From sequence record PZ862964.1: a DNA stretch of 64,000 bases. The stretch is one strand, 5' to 3'. The stretch is from a phage. Of this stretch, positions 4,746 to 17,155 are shown piece after piece (position 1 is the stretch's first letter; every line of letters begins with the position of its first letter). Under the pieces are notes generated by a model. It saw only the letters and a program-made list of their open reading frames with translations. It made no database searches and was not told the DNA's origin. A program made the position numbers and the translations under genes.

Positions 4746-4784
4746 GTTTACTTTACGGTAGAGTTGTGATATTATAGCTCTACC
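4746..4784 (+). promoter_or_regulatory. Early promoter stem-loop cassette (PeSL-like)
   Basis: gtttac (4746-4751), ~18-nt spacer, tattat (4770-4775); inverted repeat ggtagag (4757-4763) / ctctacc (4778-4784) flanking -10; RBS gagga then ATG 4806. Confidence 0.55.
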
Positions 4785-4805
4785 AAAACAAATGAGGAAA
4801 TTGAA

Positions 4806-6712: not shown

Positions 6713-7021
6713 ATGAAACTGACAACTGAGCAGAAAGTAGCAATTCGTGAAATTTTGAAAACTAAATTGTCCATGGGTGTTTCAAACGTAGTTTTTGAAA
6801 AGTCTGACGGTACTATTCGTACTATGAAAGGTACTCGTGATGCAGACTTTATGCCAACCATGCAAACTGGTAAATTGACTGAATCTACTCGGAAAGAATC
6901 TACTGACATGATTCCAGTATTTGATGTTGAACTTGGTGCATGGCGAGGTTTTTCTATTGACAAATTGATTTCCGTTAATGGTATGAAAGTTGAGCATTTG
7001 CTCCAATTTATTGGTAAATAA
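6713..7021 (+). CDS. Hypothetical small protein (T4 31.1-position)
   Basis: 102-aa ORF between cd and gene 31. Confidence 0.5.
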   Translation: MKLTTEQKVAIREILKTKLSMGVSNVVFEKSDGTIRTMKGTRDADFMPTMQTGKLTESTRKESTDMIPVFDVELGAWRGFSIDKLISVNGMKVEHLLQFIGK

Positions 7022-7078
7022 ATGCTTTAAGAATTATTTGTTATTATTAATTCATCTGTTAACAAAAAAGGAAAAACG

Positions 7079-7414
7079 ATGTCTGAAGTACAACAGCTAC
7101 CAATTCGTGCTGTCGGTGAATATGTTATTTTAGTTTCTGAACCTGCACAAGCTGGTGATGAAGAAGTTACAGAATCAGGACTTATTATTGGTAAACGTGT
7201 CCAAGGTGAAGTTCCTGAACTGTGTGTAGTTCACTCTGTTGGTCCTGATGTTCCTAAAGGTTTCTGCGAAGTTGGCGATTTGACTTCTCTTCCAGTTGGT
7301 CAAATTCGAAATGTTCCGCATCCTTTTGTAGCTCTGGGTCTTAAGCAGCCAAAAGAAATTAAACAAAAATTCGTTACTTGTCACTATAAAGCTATTCCGT
7401 GTCTTTATAAGTGA
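7079..7414 (+). CDS. 31: Co-chaperonin gp31 (GroES analogue for capsid folding)
   Basis: 111 aa; [26 protein letters not shown]... matches T4 gp31 as recalled; RBS aaggaaaa upstream. Confidence 0.92.
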
Positions 7415-7422
7415 TATAAATA
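7415..7422 (+). promoter_or_regulatory. TATAAATA late-promoter-like motif downstream of gene 31
   Basis: Exact tataaata immediately after gene 31 stop, 119 nt upstream of rIII; followed by hairpin gaattg-agtt-caattc (7430-7447). Confidence 0.3.
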
Positions 7423-7540
7423 ATAATATGAATTGAGTTTCAATTCTATGTGGTAGTCTACAACTGAGAGATCTGTCGAAAGAAGATGAAATTCAGAAGA
7501 ACGTGACTACCGAGTTTTAATCTCTAACGAGAATTTTTAA

Positions 7541-7789
7541 ATGATTAAACAATTACAACACGCTCTTGAACTGCAACGAAACGCATGGAATAATGGTCAC
7601 GAAAACTATGGCGCATCTATTGATGTTGAAGCCGAAGCTCTTGAAATCCTGCGTTATTTCAAACATCTGAATCCTGCTCAAACTGCATTAGCTGCTGAGC
7701 TTCAGGAAAAAGATGAACTTAAGTATGCTAAGCCTCTGGCTTCTGCTGCACGAAAAGCAGTTCGTCATTTTGTGGTAACACTGAAGTAA
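7541..7789 (+). CDS. rIII: rIII lysis-inhibition accessory protein
   Basis: 82-aa ORF in the position and of the length of T4 rIII. Confidence 0.8.
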   Translation: MIKQLQHALELQRNAWNNGHENYGASIDVEAEALEILRYFKHLNPAQTALAAELQEKDELKYAKPLASAARKAVRHFVVTLK

Positions 7790-7867
7790 TTATGTTGACG
7801 AGGTTTATGGTTATCCTGTCGGTAAATATTCAAAACCTAAGTACCCCCTTGAGGGCTTGCGCAGGCA

Positions 7868-8086
7868 ATGCCAATAAGTCCTGCATTTTCGTTTAAAAGA
7901 GAATTTATAATGGCAAAACAAGTTAAAGCAAAGAAAGCAGTTGAAAAGAAAGTTGGTGATTCTAAACGCGCTGGTTACAAGCGTGGGTCGAACTCTCGTA
8001 TCAATCAAACTGTTGAGAAGATCATGCGCCGAGCACGTGCGGTTCTTCGAGATGATGCTTCTCGTTTTGGTAAGCAGAAAGCATAA
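7868..8086 (+). CDS. Small basic protein (Lys/Arg-rich), hypothetical
   Basis: ORF ending just before a strong terminator; alternative start ATG 7910 (MAKQVKAKKAVEKK...). Confidence 0.5.
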   Translation: MPISPAFSFKREFIMAKQVKAKKAVEKKVGDSKRAGYKRGSNSRINQTVEKIMRRARAVLRDDASRFGKQKA

Positions 8087-8090
8087 GTTG

Positions 8091-8120
8091 AGGACTCCTT
8101 CGGGAGTCCTTTTTTATTTT
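8091..8120 (+). terminator. Rho-independent terminator
   Basis: Hairpin aggactcc-ttcg-ggagtcct (8091-8110) followed by tttttatttt. Confidence 0.8.
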
Positions 8121-8139
8121 CCAAAGATTGCACAAAGTT

Positions 8140-8172
8140 GTTTACAGTACGGTTCCTTTGTGATAGTATTAT
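8140..8172 (+). promoter_or_regulatory. Early promoter stem-loop cassette (PeSL-like)
   Basis: gtttac (8140-8145), 17-19-nt spacer, atagta/tagtat -10; inverted repeat tttgtg / cacaaa around -10; RBS aaggag (8185-8190) then ATG 8197. Confidence 0.55.
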
Positions 8173-8196
8173 CTTACACAAACAAAGGAGAATAAA

Positions 8197-8529
8197 ATGA
8201 AAACGATTAATCTGAACTCTACAGTTAAAACTAAATGTTTCAATGGTAAATATAATGAAACTATGTGGTTCTTAATGGCAGTTGAAGGTGATATTATTGA
8301 AGTAGAAACAACAGAAGGTATGGGAACAGATTTCACCTTTACAATTCAAGTTCATAATTTCTTTACTGGTTGGATTTATGAATTGAATACAATAATCGTT
8401 GGAAAAATTGAACAAAATGAATTAGGCGAATGGCATTATGTTACAGCTCGCCAACGTGCCGAACGCTTAATTGAGAAGATGAAAAAAGTTGGTAAACTTG
8501 ACATGCAGCATTGGAAAGTAGTAAAATAA
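8197..8529 (+). CDS. Hypothetical early protein
   Basis: 110-aa ORF with dedicated promoter and strong RBS. Confidence 0.6.
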   Translation: MKTINLNSTVKTKCFNGKYNETMWFLMAVEGDIIEVETTEGMGTDFTFTIQVHNFFTGWIYELNTIIVGKIEQNELGEWHYVTARQRAERLIEKMKKVGKLDMQHWKVVK

Positions 8530-8531
8530 TT

Positions 8532-8571
8532 GTTTACTTTGGTACAAGATATGATATTATATACTTGTACC
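8532..8571 (+). promoter_or_regulatory. Early promoter stem-loop cassette (PeSL-like)
   Basis: gtttac (8532-8537), 17-nt spacer, tattat (8555-8560); inverted repeat ggtacaag (8541-8548) / cttgtacc (8564-8571) flanking -10; RBS ggag then ATG 8597. Confidence 0.6.
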
Positions 8572-8596
8572 GCAATTAAACATCTTGGAGAATAAA

Positions 8597-8962
8597 ATGA
8601 ACTACATTAACTTTGAACGTAAATATGTTTCTAATGGTATTGCAGGTTCTATTGATACCATCTGCCTTTGGAAACATCAAAATGGATCAGTATGCGAAAT
8701 TGAACAATATATGACTCCTAATTACGTTTATATGCGATTTGAAAACGGTATCACGGTTTCAATCACGATGGAAGGTTCCAACTTCAAAATCGCTCTGGAT
8801 GATGATTTCCGTCAACGCGATTTAGGGACTCATCCTTGCTGGAATGGCGTTAATCGCAAGCTTTTGGTTAAAACTTGGATTCGTCATATTCTGAGTAACA
8901 GAGCTAAACCTGAGCATCTTGAAGCAATCTTTGATGTAGTTCTTAATGAATTTGATATTTAA
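8597..8962 (+). CDS. Hypothetical early protein
   Basis: ATG 8597 after RBS ggag; ORF-track start 8585 is a TTG extension. Confidence 0.6.
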   Translation: MNYINFERKYVSNGIAGSIDTICLWKHQNGSVCEIEQYMTPNYVYMRFENGITVSITMEGSNFKIALDDDFRQRDLGTHPCWNGVNRKLLVKTWIRHILSNRAKPEHLEAIFDVVLNEFDI

Positions 8963-8971
8963 AATAAAATG

Positions 8972-8985
8972 GGGGCTTCGGCCCC
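8972..8985 (+). terminator. GC-rich tetraloop hairpin (terminator or RNA stability element)
   Basis: ggggc-ttcg-gcccc directly after the 8597-8962 ORF; no clear U-run. Confidence 0.4.
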
Positions 8986-9002
8986 TTACTGAGGAAAATA
9001 TT

Positions 9003-9290
9003 ATGTTTATGACTACTTATTTTGATACCCGCAAAAATTTCTGCGAAGTGGTTTTCTCAAAGGCGCCTAAAGACCTTCCTGCTCATTTGCAGCCTACCAG
9101 TGAATCGATTAAAAACTACGTTGATGTGGTTTGTCCTTTAGAGTTCCGTACTGTAAATGGGCGCGATACTTTAGCTATCACTAAACTCAATCGCGAAATT
9201 GACATTGACCCTTCAATTGCGCGTGAAATTAACATTTCTGATATTGGCGGCGGTAATGTTAAATCGCACGGTTTTCAGATGAGGTTCTAA
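9003..9290 (+). CDS. Hypothetical early protein
   Basis: ATG 9003 after RBS gagga (8991-8995); ORF-track start 8946 is upstream extension through the hairpin. Confidence 0.55.
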   Translation: MFMTTYFDTRKNFCEVVFSKAPKDLPAHLQPTSESIKNYVDVVCPLEFRTVNGRDTLAITKLNREIDIDPSIAREINISDIGGGNVKSHGFQMRF

Positions 9291-9487
9291 TGAAATTCTT
9301 TTTAGGTCAAACTGTTGAATTAAAGGGAGTTGGTATACCTGGATTAATTTCTAAGGTTCTACCTCCATTTAAATGGAGTGGTATTCAAATAAAAGAGGCT
9401 TATATTGTTTCCTGGGTAGATGGAAATGAAGACCTTCGTATGGGTGATGAATTATCTCCTATTTACGGATTAAAGGAATTAGTATGA
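9290..9487 (+). CDS. Hypothetical small protein
   Basis: 65-aa ORF, TAATG overlap with upstream gene. Confidence 0.5.
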   Translation: MKFFLGQTVELKGVGIPGLISKVLPPFKWSGIQIKEAYIVSWVDGNEDLRMGDELSPIYGLKELV

Positions 9488-9690
9488 ATATAATTAATAA
9501 GATTTTTGGAATTCAGTACATTAAGGTCACATATAAAGTAACAGATAAAAATCCATATACTGATGAACATGAAGAACCACAAGTTGAGTCTATTATATTA
9601 GAAAAGGACCCTAACTGGCCAGTTGAATTTCGTCTTCCTTGCTATGGTCATTGGGCTGATGTTGAAATTATAAGCATTGAAAATGTCTGA
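9484..9690 (+). CDS. Hypothetical small protein
   Basis: 68-aa ORF, ATGA overlap with upstream gene. Confidence 0.5.
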   Translation: MNIINKIFGIQYIKVTYKVTDKNPYTDEHEEPQVESIILEKDPNWPVEFRLPCYGHWADVEIISIENV

Positions 9691-10141
9691 GTTAGAGATT
9701 AGAAGCAATTTTAGATGGCCATCATGTGCATTAAGTAATTTCGCCCATTGGCCTTTCGTTATGGATGGTATTCAATTTGGAGGTCTCGAAGGATTCCTTC
9801 AAGGGTGTAAGGTGAAAAATGTTGAACAACAACGTCGTATATTTGGGTTATCCGGTCTTGCCGCCCAACAAGCTGGAAGGTCTTATGCAAGAGCTCAGGA
9901 CCGTGGGACCCTCTTCTGGCTTGGAGTTCCGTTTTCAAGATACTCCCCAGCGTGGAAAGAATTATACACAAATGCATATTTTGAAGCAGCGATCCAAAAC
10001 AGGGGCTTTCGTGATGCATTACAAGCCTCGAAAGGAAAAGTTTTGAAGCACAGCATGGCTAGTGGTCTAACAAAAGATGATACAATACTAACCGAAGCTG
10101 AATTTATTGATGTGTTAAACCTATTAAGAGACTCTCTATGA
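9683..10141 (+). CDS. NADAR (YbiA/DUF1768-like) domain protein, putative ADP-ribose-processing enzyme
   Basis: 152 aa from ATG 9683; motif LSNFAHWPFVMDGIQFGGLEGFLQGCK resembles the YbiA/NADAR core (SNFaaWP...DG...E.yFQ..K) as I recall it. Motif-level call only. Confidence 0.55.
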   Translation: MSELEIRSNFRWPSCALSNFAHWPFVMDGIQFGGLEGFLQGCKVKNVEQQRRIFGLSGLAAQQAGRSYARAQDRGTLFWLGVPFSRYSPAWKELYTNAYFEAAIQNRGFRDALQASKGKVLKHSMASGLTKDDTILTEAEFIDVLNLLRDSL

Positions 10142-10974
10142 AGCCTACTATTTTAACTGATATTGATGGAGTATGTTTAAGCTGGCAATCAGGCCTTCCT
10201 TATTTTGCTCAGAAATATAATCTTCCGTTAGAACATATTTTAAAAATGATCCAGGATGAGAAATTTATTTCTCCTGGTAAACTCTTTAACTGTGATGAAG
10301 AACTTGGCGTCAAGTTAATTGAAAAATACAATCGATCAGATTTTATTCGTTACTTGTCTCCATATAAAGATGCTCTGTGTGTAATTAACAAATTAAAAGA
10401 AGATTATAATTTTGTAGCTGTTACAGCATTGGGTGATTCTATTGACGCTCTGTTGAATCGCCAATTTAATTTGAATGCTCTTTTTCCTGGTGCCTTCTCA
10501 GAAGTAATGATGTGTGGTCATGATTCTTCAAAAGAAGAGTTGTTCAAAAAGGCAAAAGAGAAATATAACGTAATTTGTTATATTGACGATCTCGCTCACC
10601 ACTGCGATCATGCGAGTGAAATATTACGTGTTCCTGTGTATTGGATGGCTCGAGGGGAACGTGACAGTATTCCAAAAACCGCTCAGCGAGTTTATACATG
10701 GAACGATGTAGAGAATAAGCTTTTTTCACCGAAGGAAAATAAAGAAAGTTTTGATAGTGAAAAAGCTATAAAAGATGTAATTGAAAAGATGATTAAAAAT
10801 GATTCTTTTCGTTGGAACACTACCTGGAGAACTCCTGGATTTAATCCTTATAATCCATATCATCCATATCAGACGCATCCGTTTCAGACATGGAACTATA
10901 TTAAACCCGGTGGTATAGAGTATTTGTATAATAGACCTACTAGTGGTGATAATATTTTCCAAGGAGCATTCTAA
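10138..10974 (+). CDS. HAD-superfamily 5'(3')-nucleotidase-like protein with Pro/aromatic-rich C-terminal tail
   Basis: 278 aa; N-terminal ILTDIDGV (HAD DxDG motif); C-terminal NPYNPYHPYQTHPFQTW low-complexity segment. Confidence 0.55.
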   Translation: MKPTILTDIDGVCLSWQSGLPYFAQKYNLPLEHILKMIQDEKFISPGKLFNCDEELGVKLIEKYNRSDFIRYLSPYKDALCVINKLKEDYNFVAVTALGDSIDALLNRQFNLNALFPGAFSEVMMCGHDSSKEELFKKAKEKYNVICYIDDLAHHCDHASEILRVPVYWMARGERDSIPKTAQRVYTWNDVENKLFSPKENKESFDSEKAIKDVIEKMIKNDSFRWNTTWRTPGFNPYNPYHPYQTHPFQTWNYIKPGGIEYLYNRPTSGDNIFQGAF

Positions 10975-11243
10975 TGTTTGTTGTTCACACTATTTATGAA
11001 AATGAAGGTAATACTACACGTGATTACGGTCACGTAAATCAATTTTTTAGATGCAATCCAGAATTCCGAGCTCAAAAAGACGAACGAATTTTTAAAAAAT
11101 GTGTAGAGCAAGGTTTCATTTACGTCAAGCATTGGATGCAAGGAAATAAAGTTAGAACCACGTACCATAGGTCTTTGACTGAGCTTAATGATGAATTGAT
11201 TTATAATAGAGCTGTAAACCAAACTCTAAAGGATGAACAATGA
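10974..11243 (+). CDS. Hypothetical small protein
   Basis: 89-aa ORF immediately upstream of DNA ligase, overlapping junctions. Confidence 0.5.
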   Translation: MFVVHTIYENEGNTTRDYGHVNQFFRCNPEFRAQKDERIFKKCVEQGFIYVKHWMQGNKVRTTYHRSLTELNDELIYNRAVNQTLKDEQ

Positions 11244-12703
11244 TTCTTAAAATTCTGAACGAAATAGCATCTATTGGTTCAACTAAGCAGAAGCAAGCAA
11301 TTCTTGAAAAGAATAAAGATAATGAATTGCTCAAACGAGTATATCGTCTGACTTATTCTCGTGGGTTACAGTATTATATAAAGAAATGGCCTAAACCCGG
11401 TATTGCTACCCAGAGTTTTGGGATGCTGACTATTACCGATATGCTCGATTTTATTGAATTCACGTTAGCTACTCGGAAATTAACTGGAAATGCAGCAATT
11501 GAGGAATTAATCGGATATATCACCGATGGTAAAAAAGATGATGTTGAAGTATTACGTCGAGTAATGATGCGAGACCTTGAATGTGGTGCTTCTGTATCTA
11601 TTGCAAACAAAGTTTGGCCAGGTTTAATTCCTGAACAACCTCAAATGCTCGCAAGTTCTTATGATGAAAAAGGCATTAGTAAGAATATCAAATTTCCAGC
11701 CTTTGCCCAGTTAAAAGCTGATGGAGCTCGGTGTTTTGCTGAAGTTAGAGGTGATGAATTAGATGATGTTCGTCTTTTATCACGAGCTGGTAATGAATAT
11801 CTAGGATTAGATCTTCTTAAAGAAGAGTTAATCAAAATGACCGCTGAAGCCCGCCAGATTCATCCAGAAGGTGTGTTAATTGATGGCGAATTGGTATACC
11901 ATGAGCAAGTTAAAAAGGAGCCAGAAGGCCTAGATTTTCTTTTTGATGCTTATCCTGAAATTAGTAAAGCTAAAGAGTTTGCTGAAGTAGCTGAATCACG
12001 TACTACTTCTAATGGAATCGCTAATAAATCTTTAAAGGGAACTATTTCAGAAAAAGAAGCTCAATGCATGAAGTTTCAGGTCTGGGATTATGTTCCGTTG
12101 GTAGAAATATACGGTCTTCCAGCATTTCGTTTAAAATATGATGTACGTTTTTCTAAATTAGAACAAATGACATCAGGATATGATAAAGTAATTTTAATTG
12201 AAAACCAAGTAGTAAATAACCTAGATGAAGCTAAGGTAATTTATAAAAAGTATATTGACCAAGGTCTTGAAGGTATTATTCTCAAAAATATTGATGGATT
12301 ATGGGAAAATGCTCGTTCAAAAAATCTCTATAAATTTAAAGAAGTAATTGATGTTGATTTAAAAATTGTAGGAATTTATCCTCACCGTAAAGACCCTACT
12401 AAAGCAGGTGGATTTATTCTTGAGTCAGAGTGTGGAAAAATTAAGGTAAATGCTGGTTCAGGCTTAAAAGATAAAGCCGGCGTAAAATCACATGAACTTG
12501 ACCGTACTCGCATTATGGAAAACCAAAATTATTATATTGGAAAAATTCTAGAGTGCGAATGCAACGGTTGGTTAAAATCCGATGGCCGCACTGATTACGT
12601 TAAATTATTTCTTCCGATTGCGATTCGTTTACGCGAAGATAAAACTAAAGCTAATACGTTCGAAGATGTATTTGGTGATTTTCATGAGGTAACTGGTTTA
12701 TGA
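11240..12703 (+). CDS. 30: ATP-dependent DNA ligase (gp30)
   Basis: 487 aa; MILKILNEIASIGSTKQKQAILEKNKDNELLKRVYRLTYSRGLQYYIKKWPKPG... matches T4 DNA ligase as recalled, with adenylation-lysine context FAQLKADGARC. Confidence 0.97.
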   Translation: MILKILNEIASIGSTKQKQAILEKNKDNELLKRVYRLTYSRGLQYYIKKWPKPGIATQSFGMLTITDMLDFIEFTLATRKLTGNAAIEELIGYITDGKKDDVEVLRRVMMRDLECGASVSIANKVWPGLIPEQPQMLASSYDEKGISKNIKFPAFAQLKADGARCFAEVRGDELDDVRLLSRAGNEYLGLDLLKEELIKMTAEARQIHPEGVLIDGELVYHEQVKKEPEGLDFLFDAYPEISKAKEFAEVAESRTTSNGIANKSLKGTISEKEAQCMKFQVWDYVPLVEIYGLPAFRLKYDVRFSKLEQMTSGYDKVILIENQVVNNLDEAKVIYKKYIDQGLEGIILKNIDGLWENARSKNLYKFKEVIDVDLKIVGIYPHRKDPTKAGGFILESECGKIKVNAGSGLKDKAGVKSHELDRTRIMENQNYYIGKILECECNGWLKSDGRTDYVKLFLPIAIRLREDKTKANTFEDVFGDFHEVTGL

Positions 12704-12910: not shown

Positions 12911-12940
12911 ATAAATAGAATAAACACTAGAGAGGATATG

Positions 12941-15034
12941 ATGGAACTCATTACAGAATTATTTGACGAAGATACTACTCTTCCGATTACAAACTTAAAT
13001 CCAAAGAAGAAAATACCACAAATTTTTTCAGTTCATGTTGATGATGCAATTGAACAACCAGGCTTTCGTTTATGTACCTATACGTCTGGAGGTGATACTA
13101 ATCGTGATTTAAAGATGGGCGATAAAATGATGCATATTGTTCCTTTTACATTAACTGCTAAAGGTTCAATTGCTAAATTAAAAGGTCTTGGTCCAAGCCC
13201 AATTAATTATATCAATTCAGTTTTTACTGTTGCAATGCAAACAATGCGTCAGTATAAAATTGATGCTTGTATGCTCCGTATTCTTAAGTCTAAAACTGCT
13301 GGTCAAGCTAGACAAATTCAAGTTATTGCTGATAGACTTATCCGTAGTCGTTCAGGTGGCAGATACGTCCTTCTTAAGGAACTCTGGGATTACGATAAAA
13401 AGTATGCATATATTCTTATACATCGCAAAAATGTATCACTAGAAGACATTCCAGGAGTTCCGGAAATTAGTACCGAGCTCTTTACTAAAGTTGAATCGAA
13501 GGTCGGTGATGTTTATATCAATAAAGATACTGGAGCTCAAGTAACTAAAAATGAGGCAATTGCAGCATCTATTGCACAAGAAAATGATAAACGTTCTGAC
13601 CAAGCTGTAATCGTTAAAGTTAAAATTTCCCGTAGAGCAATTGCGCAAAGTCAATCGTTAGAGTCTTCTAGATTTGAAAGTGAATTATTCCAGAAGTATG
13701 AATCTACAGCAGCTAATTTTAATAAACCTGCTACCGCTCCTTTAATTCCCGAAGCAGAAGAAATGAAGCTTGGAATTAATTCATTAGCTTCTAAAACCAA
13801 GGCAGCAAAAATTATTGCCGAAGGAACTGCAGATGAACTTCATTATGACTATAAATTCTTTTCAAAAAGTGAGGTTAATGAAGTTTCTGAAAAAATTAAA
13901 GATGTAATTCTTAATGCGATTAAAAATGAACCAACTACTTCAATAAAATGTTTAGAGAAATACGCAGCAGCTGTTAATCAACTCTTTGAAGAATATAAAG
14001 ATAATTGGCTTGATAAACATAATAAAACTCGTAAAGGGCAGCCAGATGAAGTCTGGGAAGAAATGACTAAAAATTCCTGGAACGCAGCAAAAACTAAATT
14101 CCTCAAAAGAATGATTTATAGTTTTTCTGGAATTGGTGCAGGTCCAATGATTGATATTACTATTGCCCGTGATGGTTCTAAATATACTCCATCACAAAAG
14201 CGCGGCATTAGAGAGTATTGTGGTTCAGGATATACTGACATCAATAATCTTCTTTTAGGTCGTTACAATCCAGAACGATATGATGTAATGAGTGAAAAAG
14301 AAATTGAATCTGCTATAACTAATTTAGATTCAGCTTTTGAAAATGGTGACCGCATACCGGAAGGCATTACAGTTTATCGTGCTCAAAGTATGACTGCTCC
14401 TATATACGAAGCGCTAGTTAAAAATAAAGTGTTCTACTTCAGAAATTTTGTATCTACTTCTTTAACTCCTATCATTTTTGGACGTTTTGGAATTACACAT
14501 GCTGGTATTGGTCTTTTAGAACCAGAATCTCGCAATGAATTAACAGTTGATAAAAATGAAGAAGGAATAACTATTAATCCAAACGAAATAAGAGCGTATA
14601 AAGAAAATCCTGAATACGTTAAAGTTCAAATAGGATGGGCAATTGATGGAGCTCATAAAGTTAATGTTGTATATCCAGGAAGTCTCGGAATAGCAACAGA
14701 AGCTGAAGTTATTCTACCGCGTGGATTGATGGTCAAAGTTAATAAAATAACTGATGCTTCTAATAATGACGGAACAACATCTAATAATACAAAACTCATT
14801 CAAGCTGAAGTTATGACCACGGAAGAGCTCACCGAATCGGTAATCTATGATGGAGACCATTTAATGGAAACTGGTGAATTGGTTGCAATGACAGGTGATA
14901 TTGAAATAGAAGACAGAGTTGACTTTGCATCATTTGTTTCATCAAATGTTAAACAGAAAGTAGAATCATCTCTTGGAATTATTGCGTCTTGCATAGATAT
15001 TACAAACATGCCTTACAAGTTCGTTCAAGGATAA
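12941..15034 (+). CDS. alt: Alt-type ADP-ribosyltransferase (virion-packaged, injected)
   Basis: ~697 aa; N-terminus MELITELFDEDTTLPITNLNPKKKIPQIF as in T4 Alt (recalled); R-S-E ART motif elements (YRAQ, FVSTSL, EAEVILPRG). Confidence 0.85.
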   Translation: MELITELFDEDTTLPITNLNPKKKIPQIFSVHVDDAIEQPGFRLCTYTSGGDTNRDLKMGDKMMHIVPFTLTAKGSIAKLKGLGPSPINYINSVFTVAMQTMRQYKIDACMLRILKSKTAGQARQIQVIADRLIRSRSGGRYVLLKELWDYDKKYAYILIHRKNVSLEDIPGVPEISTELFTKVESKVGDVYINKDTGAQVTKNEAIAASIAQENDKRSDQAVIVKVKISRRAIAQSQSLESSRFESELFQKYESTAANFNKPATAPLIPEAEEMKLGINSLASKTKAAKIIAEGTADELHYDYKFFSKSEVNEVSEKIKDVILNAIKNEPTTSIKCLEKYAAAVNQLFEEYKDNWLDKHNKTRKGQPDEVWEEMTKNSWNAAKTKFLKRMIYSFSGIGAGPMIDITIARDGSKYTPSQKRGIREYCGSGYTDINNLLLGRYNPERYDVMSEKEIESAITNLDSAFENGDRIPEGITVYRAQSMTAPIYEALVKNKVFYFRNFVSTSLTPIIFGRFGITHAGIGLLEPESRNELTVDKNEEGITINPNEIRAYKENPEYVKVQIGWAIDGAHKVNVVYPGSLGIATEAEVILPRGLMVKVNKITDASNNDGTTSNNTKLIQAEVMTTEELTESVIYDGDHLMETGELVAMTGDIEIEDRVDFASFVSSNVKQKVESSLGIIASCIDITNMPYKFVQG

Positions 15035-15037
15035 ATC

Positions 15038-17095
15038 ATGGAACTTATTACAGAATTATTTGACGGCGCTTCGGCGCCGGTTGTTAACTTAAATCCTAAG
15101 CATAAAATACCTCAAATTTTTGCTATTCAAGCCGGTGAAGAAAGTGTGCTTCCTGGATTTAGATTTTGTACATACACCTCTGGTGGTGATACAAATAAAA
15201 ACGTTAAGCCAGGCGATAAAATGATGCATATCGTAATGATAGGTGTCAACGAGAAATTATCGCTGGTTAAGCTTAGAAACTTGGGTGGAAATCCAATTGG
15301 CGTCATTAATGCTGTTTTTGATACTGCTCTTCAAACAATGAAGCAGTACAAAATTGACGCGTGCTTATTCCGTGTACTAAAGAGTAAAACAAATGGCGCA
15401 GCTCGTCAAATGCAAGTTATTGCTGACCGTTTAGTACGTACTAAAGGAGCAGGTCGATATGTTCTTTTAAAGGAAATCTGGGACTATGATAAAAAGTATG
15501 CATATATTATGGTTTACCGTAAAAATGCCAATTTAGAAGACATTCCAGGTGTACCTCCTATTTCAACTGAGTTATTCACAAAAGTTGAATCAAAGGTTGG
15601 TGATGTTTATGTAGACGTTAAAACAGGTAATGCTGTTCCTAAAGCTGTCGCTGTTGCTGCTTCTATTGCTTTAGAAAATGATAAGCGCACTGATCAAGCT
15701 GTTATTCAGAAAACTAAAATTAGTCGTCGATTAGCAGCACAAGCTCAATATTCTACTGTTGATGCTTCACTTCAGGGCGATAGCTTCGCTGCCAAGAAAT
15801 ATCAAGAGTTTGAATCTAAAGTTCCGGTATATAAAGCAGAAGGACCAATGAACTCTGGCGTTATCCAGATTGGTTCAAACTTCAGCAAAGGAGCTATCGG
15901 TGGTATGAGAAGTGCTTCTCGTTTTAAATCTAATGATTATGAACTAGAAAGTTTCCGAAATCATATTGCATTAGCTCATGCACGTTTACGCGATCCATCT
16001 ATCAAGCTGCAGAGCGATATAACATATCAAGGTTCTCAAGAATATTTAAAGAATAAAGAATTTTTTGATTATAAAACTGATAAAATTTTAAGCGATCTTG
16101 CTGACATTAATATTTCTAATAGCTTTGATGTTATTAAGAAAATTATCAATGATTTAGTTAAAGGTTCTAAAGCTACATCAGATGAAAAGACAGCTATTAT
16201 TCAATTTGTAATGAATGGCATTTATAAATTGATTAATGAATCTGCTGCTCAGGCATATGAATACGCAAGCACCGAAGTAACTCCAAAAGGATTAACTCAA
16301 GCTGAATCTGATGTAATTGAAGATTATTGTGCAGATTCATATGTTGAAATGAACTCGTTCCTTTTGGGTAAACCAGATTCTACCCGTGAAGAATATATGG
16401 AACGAGCTATTAAACATATTGAGACGCTGGATTCTGCATTCGCCAAAGGATCAGTTCTTCCTCCAGGAACTACACTTTACCGTGGACAAGAAGTTACCTT
16501 TAAAACTTTGCGTCATAACATTGAAAATAAAATGTTCTATTTCAAGAACTTCGTATCGACATCACTTAAACCAAATATCTTCGGTGAGCATGGTAAAAAC
16601 TATATGGCTCTAGATGATTCCGGCGCAGTATTTTCTGGCGAAGGAGAAGGTTCCGTTGATGCAGAAGATTTAATGCATATGGGTAGTCATTCTACATATG
16701 CCAATGAAGATGCTGAAACTAGCGTGGGTATGGTAATTAAAGGAGCTGAGCGAATCAAAGTTATCGTTCCAGGTCATTTATCAGGATTTCCATCAGAAGC
16801 TGAAGTTATTCTACCGCGTGGAATTTTACTGAAGATTAATAAAGTAAGTACGTACTTTATGAAAGAAACTGCTTATAACAAGTATCTAATCGAAGGTACA
16901 ATCGTTCCTCCTTCTGAACAATTAGAAGAATCAGTATATGATGGAGACCATCTAATGGAAACTGGTGAAGTTCGTCCAATGGCTGGATTTAATCAATTCC
17001 TTGTAGAAGAATCAAAAGAAGAGGAAAACGAAGTTTCTCAAATCTTAGCTTCTTTGGTTAACATCAACGGAATGTCTAAAAAGTTCAAGATGTAG
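15038..17095 (+). CDS. Alt paralog, second ADP-ribosyltransferase
   Basis: 685 aa; N-terminal ~220 aa and C-terminal ART region clearly paralogous to the upstream alt (MELITELFD..., YKIDAC..., FVSTSLKP, EAEVILPRG, ESVYDGDHLMETGE); central region divergent. Confidence 0.8.
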   Translation: MELITELFDGASAPVVNLNPKHKIPQIFAIQAGEESVLPGFRFCTYTSGGDTNKNVKPGDKMMHIVMIGVNEKLSLVKLRNLGGNPIGVINAVFDTALQTMKQYKIDACLFRVLKSKTNGAARQMQVIADRLVRTKGAGRYVLLKEIWDYDKKYAYIMVYRKNANLEDIPGVPPISTELFTKVESKVGDVYVDVKTGNAVPKAVAVAASIALENDKRTDQAVIQKTKISRRLAAQAQYSTVDASLQGDSFAAKKYQEFESKVPVYKAEGPMNSGVIQIGSNFSKGAIGGMRSASRFKSNDYELESFRNHIALAHARLRDPSIKLQSDITYQGSQEYLKNKEFFDYKTDKILSDLADINISNSFDVIKKIINDLVKGSKATSDEKTAIIQFVMNGIYKLINESAAQAYEYASTEVTPKGLTQAESDVIEDYCADSYVEMNSFLLGKPDSTREEYMERAIKHIETLDSAFAKGSVLPPGTTLYRGQEVTFKTLRHNIENKMFYFKNFVSTSLKPNIFGEHGKNYMALDDSGAVFSGEGEGSVDAEDLMHMGSHSTYANEDAETSVGMVIKGAERIKVIVPGHLSGFPSEAEVILPRGILLKINKVSTYFMKETAYNKYLIEGTIVPPSEQLEESVYDGDHLMETGEVRPMAGFNQFLVEESKEEENEVSQILASLVNINGMSKKFKM

Positions 17096-17147
17096 TTTAC
17101 AAGTTCCTTATGTTGTGTTATAGTAGTCTTACTGACATAACATGAGG
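17095..17147 (+). promoter_or_regulatory. Early promoter stem-loop cassette (PeSL-like), near-identical to 1439-1491
   Basis: gtttac (17095-17100), 18-nt spacer, tatagt (17119-17124); inverted repeat ccttatgttgtg / cataacatgagg; RBS gagga then ATG 17156. Confidence 0.6.
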
Positions 17148-17155
17148 AACACAAA

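Follow-up and report, generated by a model that had tools for sequence, protein, structure and literature searches.

The window, as we call the whole stretch of phage DNA analysed here (64,000 nucleotides of sequence record PZ862964.1, read 5′ to 3′ on one strand), comes from a Tequatrovirus genome. We focused on positions 7868 to 11243, where small genes are packed between rIII and the gene for DNA ligase. A first-pass annotation, made from the sequence without database searches, had listed ten open reading frames (ORFs) in this region, and all ten are present on the + strand. Comparisons were made by computation only, with T4 (NC_000866) as the reference, and on their evidence the region is the T4 30.9-30.1 block, with one-to-one orthologues in T4 order. 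The block and its flanks contain the following features:

7790-7909, + strand: spacer between rIII and 30.9, ~125 nt shorter than in T4 and ~168 nt shorter than in KMB23 by alignment
7910-8086, + strand: gene 30.9, 58 aa
8090-8111, + strand: predicted intrinsic terminator, GAGGACTCC-UUCG-GGAGUCCUU followed by a U-run, a nine-pair hairpin that would close the rIII/30.9 unit
8140-8169, + strand: predicted 30.8 early promoter, GTTTACA, 17-nt spacer, TG-extended -10 TAGTAT
8153-8190, + strand: dyad at the 30.8 promoter, spanning the -10, its 3′ arm (8182-8190) covering the Shine-Dalgarno sequence AAGGAG (8185-8190)
8197-8529, + strand: gene 30.8, 110 aa, Pfam Phage_30_8
8532-8560, + strand: predicted 30.7 early promoter, GTTTACT, 16-nt spacer, TG-extended -10 TATTAT
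8540-8572, + strand: dyad at the 30.7 promoter, GGTACAAG...CTTGTACC, enclosing the -10
8597-8962, + strand: gene 30.7, 121 aa, Pfam Phage_T4_Gp30_7
9003-9290, + strand: gene 30.6, 95 aa
9290-9487, + strand: gene 30.5, 65 aa
9484-9690, + strand: gene 30.4, 68 aa, acidic
9683-10141, + strand: gene 30.3, adfN, 152 aa, Pfam Phage_30_3 (PF08010)
9819-10046, + strand: 30.3′, 75 aa, out of frame (+1) inside 30.3, Pfam DUF2883, annotated in T4
10138-10974, + strand: gene 30.2, 278 aa
10974-11243, + strand: gene 30.1, 89 aa, DUF3045, overlapping the ligase start codon
11240-12703, + strand: gene 30, DNA ligase, 98.8% identical to T4 gp30, essential in HIDEN-SEQ

A megablast search with window positions 7400-11400 matched 803 phage records. 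T4 is 97.6% identical over this interval with collinear genes, and the closest record is vB-Eco-KMB23 (98.6%). The T4 genes run, in the same orientation, as cd, 31.2, 31.1, 31, rIII, 30.9-30.1 (with 30.3′ inside 30.3), 30 (ligase) and alt.1, and each gene of this cd-to-alt.1 series has a window ORF of equal length. Protein identity to T4 is 96.4-100% for the nine genes 30.9-30.1 and 92% for 30.3′. Gene order, lengths, promoters and terminator are all common to the window and the T4 block (T4p212-T4p203), which differ in ~2.4% of nucleotides, in the deletion of ~125 nt of the rIII-30.9 spacer and in an A-T pair that replaces a G-C pair in the dyad at the 30.7 promoter. The synteny comparison with T4 30.1-30.9 that the first-pass annotation had proposed was therefore run with a simple outcome, the same order and a 1:1 correspondence. 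That annotation had set its interpretation, a cluster in which anti-defence genes tend to sit, against a 1:1 match with well-characterised T4 genes of unrelated function. The match is 1:1, but the T4 genes are mostly uncharacterised and the sole characterised one acts in anti-defence, so the interpretation is not refuted, only already known. The map of the block dates back to the sequencing of the T4 genome, and the window version shows no departure suggesting new biology. As for the beginning of the region at 7868, an upstream ATG does exist there, but no Shine-Dalgarno sequence precedes it; the start used in T4 is the later ATG, equivalent to 7910 and preceded by AAGAGA, and the 72-aa version of 30.9 that would begin at 7868 was rejected.

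The gene with a published function is 30.3. Its product matches the Pfam family Phage_30_3 over the full length (E 1.7e-69) and is 98% identical to its T4 counterpart, with all 152 aa and the same C-terminus (...LNLLRDSL). T4 gp30.3 has been renamed AdfN ('anti-DarT factor NADAR'); this protein is both necessary and sufficient for the resistance of T-even phages to the toxin-antitoxin defence DarTG1, and it strips ADP-ribose from DNA in vitro, an activity that requires E36 and K43 (PMC11257639). The substrate of T4 AdfN is guanine-ADP-ribose and not cytidine-ADP-ribose (PMC12945103). The three substitutions that separate the window protein from T4 AdfN (H22Q, R107K and M125I, window residue first) spare the reported catalytic residues; E36 and K43 are both present in the window, and across six divergent homologues E36 is invariant and K43 is either K or R. 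The first-pass label of a NADAR-like ORF was borne out by a profile of six gp30.3 homologues from five genera, which matched the Escherichia coli NADAR protein YbiA (PDB 2b3w, E 0.006) over the SNF..P..DG..E.F.Q..K motif, the stretch that holds E36 and K43; a single-sequence search gave no match. RB69 is sensitive to DarTG1, a frameshift having removed the last 15 residues of its AdfN copy (PMC11257639). Compared with the T4 protein, described as an orphan DarG1-like NADAR antitoxin (PMC11257639), the window protein keeps the length, E36, K43 and the C-terminal helix that is lost in RB69. In HIDEN-SEQ, 30.3 is essential only with DarTG1 present (bioRxiv 10.1101/2025.11.20.689424). Window 30.3 is thus adfN; carried over by orthology, its product would be a NADAR-type DNA ADP-ribosylglycohydrolase that counters DarTG1: it would remove the ADP-ribose placed by DarT1 on guanines of the phage DNA, letting the phage replicate in DarTG1 cells.

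Downstream, at a distance of 1.7 kb from the block and ~2.8 kb from adfN, is the gene for the Alt ADP-ribosyltransferase (12938-15034, 698 aa), and enzymes that add (Alt) and remove (AdfN) ADP-ribose are near neighbours here. According to the HIDEN-SEQ preprint (bioRxiv 10.1101/2025.11.20.689424), Alt helps T4 to escape Mokosh type I.

Whether the internal frame 30.3′ is coding appears doubtful, as the evidence conflicts. The T4 30.3′ protein is listed as detected early (Table S2, PMC9697503), and its ATG has AAGGTG at Shine-Dalgarno distance, while 30.3 itself has no such sequence. On the other hand, the 30.3′ frame shows no purifying selection, all six differences from T4 being non-synonymous in it, and a stop codon interrupts it in Mosigvirus, whose 30.3 is 96% identical. 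Given that the AAGGTG and the ATG fall within the codons of the conserved AdfN residues K43-V-K-N-V, translation of 30.3′ may be a by-product.

For gene 30.2 there are 100 homologues, in T4-like phages whose hosts include Escherichia, Klebsiella, Erwinia, Yersinia, Serratia, Acinetobacter, Pseudomonas and Shewanella. When 40 of these homologues were aligned, the HAD residues D8, D10 (both motif I) and K132 (motif III) proved invariant, and T96 (motif II) and D150-D151 (motif IV) are conserved in at least 90%. An AF2 model of gp30.2 has a pLDDT above 93 over the core (aa 1-200), which is Rossmann-like with a cap domain, and most of the tail is disordered. Against the PDB, 104 matches reached E<=0.001, and all of the matches listed are HAD folds or designs on that scaffold. 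The best folds by Foldseek are the mouse and human 5′(3′)-deoxyribonucleotidases (cdN/mdN) and a bacterial deoxyribonucleotidase-like protein (target-normalised TM 0.63-0.71), and gp30.2 also matches phage '5′ nucleotidase' models in BFVD, a viral structure library. With cdN/mdN (PDB 2jao, 2i7d and 1q92) and the Staphylococcus epidermidis protein 3bwv it has in common the HAD core, a helical cap after motif I and a DxDGV motif I, from which it is set apart by a sequence identity of just 14-19%, an additional disordered tail of 80 residues and the lack of a match to any nucleotidase family model. By phmmer, the match to 2jao is weak (E 1.4), and other HAD hydrolases score about as well in the fold search. 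The first-pass label of a HAD nucleotidase-like protein survives these comparisons, with all four HAD motifs kept and top folds of the cdN/mdN type. As modelled, gp30.2 is an intact HAD phosphatase whose fold is nearest the 5′(3′)-deoxyribonucleotidases; it would be an active Mg-dependent phosphomonoesterase with a helical cap and would probably dephosphorylate a (deoxy)nucleoside monophosphate.

The Pro/aromatic-rich tail described in the first pass (NPYNPYHPYQTHPFQTW) was located in 30.2. The tail is variable and is missing in many homologues, and a short motif near its end, GIEYLxxxPT, recurs widely: it reads G(T)GIEYLxxQPT in distant homologues and PGGIEYLYNRPT in the window (residues ~257-268, positions 10906-10941). 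No other ORF of the window carries it. This motif may be a candidate docking motif for a partner; it loosely resembles the LDFL-type clamp-binding tails of T4 gp43, gp55 and gp33.

The adjacent gene, 30.1, belongs to Pfam DUF3045 (E 2.9e-64). All its homologues are proteins of T4-like phages, and no informative domain fusion was found among them; the best PDB match (E 0.019) is to an unrelated cell-surface protein. In the Logan contig SRR21148734_3542831 (positions 234-1142), a 302-aa protein consists of the HAD core of gp30.2 fused to a 30.1-like DUF3045 domain, directly upstream of ligase. This fusion, known from a single 1.4-kb metagenomic contig of one sample, is a weak hint that 30.2 and 30.1 may work together.

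The other genes of the block, that is 30.9, 30.8, 30.7, 30.6, 30.5, 30.4 and again 30.1, matched only phage families without known function in scans of Pfam, PHROGs and NCBIfam, in keeping with the first-pass remark that most ORFs here have no recognisable motif. Sequence and profile searches of these seven against the PDB gave nothing significant, the PADLOC defence-protein models matched no ORF of the block, and a literature search on the gp30.x names returned nothing relevant. The Lys-rich basic protein noticed in the first pass is 30.9, which is strongly basic (isoelectric point 11.4, 19 K+R among 58 residues), belongs to phrog_1427 and is 98% identical to T4; its core SKRAGYKRGSNxRIN is kept in four further genera, where the changes fall preferentially at third codon positions, and the ratio of non-synonymous to synonymous substitution rates (dN/dS) is 0.30-0.33. 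Between genera, 30.8 (Pfam Phage_30_8, E 4.9e-58) diverges more than any other gene of the block, with 96% identity to T4 and 38-76% in other genera. An exhaustive HMMER search of 1.84 billion proteins found 21 representative homologues of 30.8, all phage-sized except for two long cellular proteins, and these two matches look compositional. At the other extreme, 30.7 (Pfam Phage_T4_Gp30_7, E 1.8e-52) is the most constrained gene of the block, with a dN/dS of 0.04 and 93% identity in Mosigvirus and Dhakavirus, where ligase is 62-64% identical. Its AF2 model (pLDDT 73) has seven strands and two helices, for which Foldseek found no fold match in the PDB (best E 0.2), and its homologues are confined to T4-like phage proteins, with no informative domain fusions. 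The remaining three are nearly identical to their T4 counterparts: 30.6 (99%, phrog_2153; absent or replaced in Mosigvirus and Karamvirus), 30.5 (100%, phrog_1690) and 30.4 (98.5%, phrog_2042). The seven proteins are real, under purifying selection and restricted to T4-like phages.

Published T4 data describe when these genes act. The T4 transcripts of all block genes are classed as early (Table S2, PMC9697503), which bears out the first-pass picture of packed small early genes between rIII and ligase. At the protein level, 30.8-30.4 accumulate early, 30.2, 30.1 and ligase in the middle class and 30.3 late, and 30.9 is undetected (Table S2, PMC9697503). In HIDEN-SEQ, a transposon-sequencing study of T4, genes 30.1-30.9 were all non-essential on E. 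coli K-12, with 95-100% of TA sites hit, and genes 30 and 31 were essential (Extended Data Table 6, bioRxiv 10.1101/2025.11.20.689424). Between the window and T4, the dN/dS of the nine genes is 0.03-0.47; relative to Dhakavirus, it is 0.04-0.33 where computable, synonymous sites being saturated for 30.6, 30.4 and 30.2.

The first-pass claim of a strong terminator ahead of 30.8 is backed by its fold and by covariation in five genera. The hairpin after 30.9 has a folding energy of -16.4 kcal/mol (z = -3.95) and is kept in Karamvirus, Mosigvirus, Dhakavirus and Jiaodavirus besides the genus of the window; in five of its nine pairs both bases have changed with the pairing preserved, and the UUCG loop does not vary. 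The terminator scan found no other + strand terminator-like site within 7000-12000, and an Rfam scan of 7000-11500 yielded only sub-threshold matches to Atu_C8 and mir-126, which overlie the terminator and the dyad at the 30.7 promoter. In the spacer upstream of 30.9, the junction with rIII (7789-7800) aligns as two pieces in each of the top matches listed from 50,697 phage records, and therefore the spacer deletion looks unique to the window genome. The stretch missing from the window is annotated in KMB23 as a 62-aa ORF, and the deleted T4 segment contains, by eye in the alignment, an AT-rich hairpin that may terminate rIII.

The promoters that had been placed ahead of 30.8 and 30.7 are both supported by enrichment of their signature and by conservation. 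The T4 early-promoter signature GTTTACW-N13/14-TGnTAnnnT occurs at five sites in the 64 kb against 0.07 expected (1439, 4746, 8140, 8532 and 17095, all on the + (coding) strand), with the qualification that it was composed after the sites had been seen; it agrees with the published promoter consensus of the early promoter–stem-loop (PeSL) cassettes of T4 and PST, TTTACW-N17-TAYWAT (PMC4122927). In a generic sigma-70 scan (19 sites against 16 +/- 4 expected) the promoters were indistinguishable from chance, and the strict published PST/T4 pattern gave only 2 sites against 1 expected; separation from the background required the G-extended -35 plus the TG-extended -10. The 30.8 promoter is the same in T4 except for 2 spacer bases and has equivalents in Karamvirus and Mosigvirus, and the 30.7 promoter is kept in Karamvirus, Mosigvirus and Dhakavirus. 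They lie 27 nt (30.8) and 36 nt (30.7) upstream of the respective start codons, and both genes carry the same ribosome-binding site (RBS), GGAGAATAAAATGAA. The two leaders follow a common pattern, GTTTACW...TGATAkTAT...GGAGAATAAAATGAA, and a repeat search found no other repeated cassette. Within the 30.9-30.1 block there is neither a MotA-type middle promoter nor a TATAAATA late promoter. Outside it, a MotA-box middle promoter (TGCTTTA-N12-TATTAT) lies at 7023-7053, before gene 31, and a late promoter (TATAAATA) at 7415-7422, before rIII.

Both promoters of the block sit within dyads. The fold of 8141-8205, around the 30.8 promoter, has an energy of -12.1 kcal/mol (z -2.2). The dyad at the 30.7 promoter (-13.7 kcal/mol, z -3.0) is kept in T4, Mosigvirus and Dhakavirus, and the window has an A-T pair where these three have G-C, a change on both sides. 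All five early promoters of the window are placed in this way (dyads at 1439-1495, 4746-4790, 8140-8190, 8532-8572 and 17095-17150; hairpin z from -2.2 to -6.2), and at three of the five (8140, 1439 and 17095) the 3′ arm covers the Shine-Dalgarno sequence. Because of this cover, a read-through transcript would hide the RBS and a transcript from the embedded promoter would not, so that the dyad at 30.8 may hide the RBS in read-through RNA. RBS-sequestering hairpins that enclose a late promoter are established at T4 e, soc, 49 and I-TevI (review PMC3014915). The window dyads resemble these in having the promoter between the arms and the 3′ arm over the Shine-Dalgarno sequence, but their embedded promoter is early, and at 30.7 and 4746 the hairpin stops short of the Shine-Dalgarno sequence. 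A literature search, with the main T4 genome review outside its scope, found no description of RBS-hiding hairpins around early promoters. Two of the cassettes, 1439-1495 (before an alc-like gene) and 17095-17151 (before a 96-aa ORF), are 88% identical over 57 nt (50/57) although 15.7 kb apart; repeated regulatory cassettes have been proposed as recombination substrates (PMC2839356, PMC4122927).

From these elements, three transcription units can be proposed. The rIII unit would have 30.9 as its tail and end at the UUCG terminator (8090-8111), the strong early promoter at 8140-8169 would drive 30.8, and the one at 8532-8560 would drive a single operon, 30.7 to 30.1 plus ligase, whose genes abut or overlap. 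Only 3 nt separate the 30.8 stop codon from the start of the 30.7 promoter, with no terminator between 30.8 and 30.7, and promoter and terminator scans found no element of their own for 30.6 to 30.1. Gene junctions have the form TAATG at 30.6/30.5 and 30.2/30.1 and ATGA at 30.5/30.4, 30.3/30.2 and 30.1/30, and 30.4 and 30.3 overlap by 8 nt. The most economical reading is that 30.7-30.1 and ligase would form one translationally coupled operon, its starts and stops being predicted. The T4 timing data (PMC9697503) fit these inferred units. The first-pass annotation had instead read at least two of the genes as single-gene units with their own promoters. This holds for 30.8, but two promoters and one terminator serve nine genes, and the 30.7 promoter heads an operon.

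For seven other genera, the DNA that precedes ligase was searched with the window proteins. All nine genes were found in Dhakavirus and all but 30.6 in Mosigvirus. Karamvirus has 30.9, 30.8, 30.7, 30.5 and 30.2 plus unrelated ORFs; Jiaodavirus has 30.9, 30.7, a weak 30.6, 30.5, 30.2 and 30.1; the Acinetobacter phage KARL-1 and Slopekvirus have only 30.3 and 30.2, and Krischvirus only 30.3. The block is thus variable between genera, with 30.2 and 30.3 as its most persistent members. Along the Mosigvirus sequence, DNA identity to the window is sharply mosaic. It is 82-97% over gene 31, rIII and 30.9, 48-67% over the 30.9 terminator and 30.8, and 73-90% over the 30.7 promoter and its gene; it is then 45-72% over most of 30.6-30.4, up to ~9640, and 82-95% over the 3′ end of 30.4, all of 30.3 and the first part of 30.2, after which it drops again. 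Protein identities to Mosigvirus are 93-98% for 30.9, 30.7 and 30.3, 38% for 30.8 and 64% for ligase. The first three breakpoints coincide with a terminator, a promoter and a gene end, as predicted by the PeSL model, in which cassettes are exchanged at such elements (PMC2839356); the breakpoint at ~9640, at the 3′ end of 30.4, has no such element. Judging from this mosaic, gene-sized pieces of the block have evidently moved between genera, and recombinants of this kind have been produced experimentally (PMC11257639).

Considering all of this evidence, we hold with confidence that the region is an early-transcribed, dispensable accessory block of T4, placed in the variable stretch between rIII and ligase and including AdfN and the HAD enzyme. 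Several points weigh against this interpretation. The sites at which transcription starts and stops are sequence predictions, and the activity of AdfN in the window phage is transferred from T4 by orthology. For gp30.2, no Pfam family was matched at E<=0.1 and the curated HAD and nucleotidase models of NCBIfam gave a chance-level match only; in the fold search, nucleotidases have no clear lead over general HAD hydrolases. Any role for the seven remaining genes is a guess, and the main text of the HIDEN-SEQ preprint names none of them among its anti-defence hits. Our best guess is that these proteins may be further host-interaction or counter-defence factors that matter on particular hosts only.

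A stronger claim would be that the whole block is an anti-defence island, in which the majority of the nine genes, or all of them, would counter particular bacterial immune systems. AdfN lies in the middle of the block, the genes are all early, expressed and not needed in the laboratory strain, genera differ in gene content, 30.8 diverges fast (38-76%), and the neighbouring gene alt reportedly helps T4 to escape Mokosh type I. We nevertheless regard this claim as possible but doubtful: as far as the main text of the HIDEN-SEQ preprint reports, 30.3 is the only gene of the block that is conditionally essential on the defence systems tested, no PADLOC defence model was matched that would hint at antitoxin mimicry, 30.2 is widely conserved across Straboviridae and looks more metabolic, and a dN/dS of 0.04 for 30.7 is not the pattern of an arms race. 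The first-pass expectation that anti-defence genes sit in such clusters is right, but only for the one published gene, 30.3. A metabolic role is a similarly tentative proposal for part of the block: 30.2, 30.1 and perhaps 30.3 could form a DNA-precursor and repair module with ligase, gp30.2 trimming pools of deoxynucleoside monophosphates (dNMPs) derived from host DNA, with gp30.1 as its partner. The genes are in an operon with ligase, whose start codon 30.1 overlaps; the proteins of 30.2, 30.1 and ligase belong to the same 'middle' accumulation class in T4; the fold of gp30.2 is nearest the deoxyribonucleotidases; in six of the seven further genera, 30.2 immediately precedes ligase; and the one natural fusion of the HAD core to a 30.1-like domain is found just upstream of ligase. 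What makes the module rather unlikely is that all these genes are dispensable on K-12, that the dNMP specificity of gp30.2 is putative and that the fusion comes from a single 1.4-kb contig, adjacent-gene fusions arising easily; moreover, AdfN acts on a lesion inflicted by a defence system, where repair and counter-defence are not cleanly separable.

The organisation of the block raises the question of whether it is a string of autonomous single-gene PeSL cassettes shuffled between phages. Every part of a PeSL as described for T4-type phages (PMC2839356, PMC4122927) is present upstream of 30.8, namely the stem-loop terminator (8090-8111), an AT-rich stretch, the promoter (8140-8169) and AAGGAG (8185-8190); the 30.8 and 30.7 leaders are alike, 30.8 differs sharply between genera, and DNA identity to Mosigvirus falls from ~90% to ~55% over precisely the segment bounded by the 30.9 terminator and the 30.7 promoter, as though the 30.8 cassette had been exchanged. 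This is the only complete PeSL of the block, and most genes are cassette-free: 30.7 has a promoter without an upstream stem-loop terminator, only two promoters and one terminator are shared by the nine genes, seven genes overlap or abut with no intergenic cassette, and further identity breakpoints, for instance the one at 30.4/30.3 near 9640, fall within coding sequence and have no promoter close by. A string of cassettes is therefore an unlikely description of the block as a whole. Two bolder proposals, taken jointly, have a slim chance of being correct. In one, the dyads may insulate cassettes, so that a gene is translated only from transcripts of its own promoter; in the other, gp30.2, possibly with gp30.1, would be a tethered HAD nucleotidase that could destroy nucleotide danger signals or toxic nucleotides arising from the degradation of host DNA. 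An example of such a signal is m6-dAMP, which triggers the PUA-Cal-HAD defence system (bioRxiv 10.64898/2026.01.15.699771). The least credible of the explanations is that the small ORFs have no function and are filler, ORFans retained by chance or through hitch-hiking beside essential genes. Seven of them have no function, motif or relative of solved structure, and all nine are dispensable, yet the dN/dS values (0.03-0.47 against T4 and 0.04-0.33 against Dhakavirus), the persistence of orthologues in genera where ligase is only 57-71% identical and the detection of the 30.8-30.1 proteins in T4-infected cells leave this explanation strongly disfavoured.

The preferred interpretation, that of an early, dispensable accessory block, places this region within the textbook 'dark matter' of T4, of which one gene was recently solved as AdfN, an anti-DarTG1 factor. 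Finding the block again in a relative of T4 brings no new biology; it shows that accessory and anti-defence regions can be located from raw sequence. The remaining value lies in the eight expressed proteins that are under selection but unassigned, which provide a shortlist that includes a predicted HAD phosphatase conserved beside ligase in many T4-like genera.

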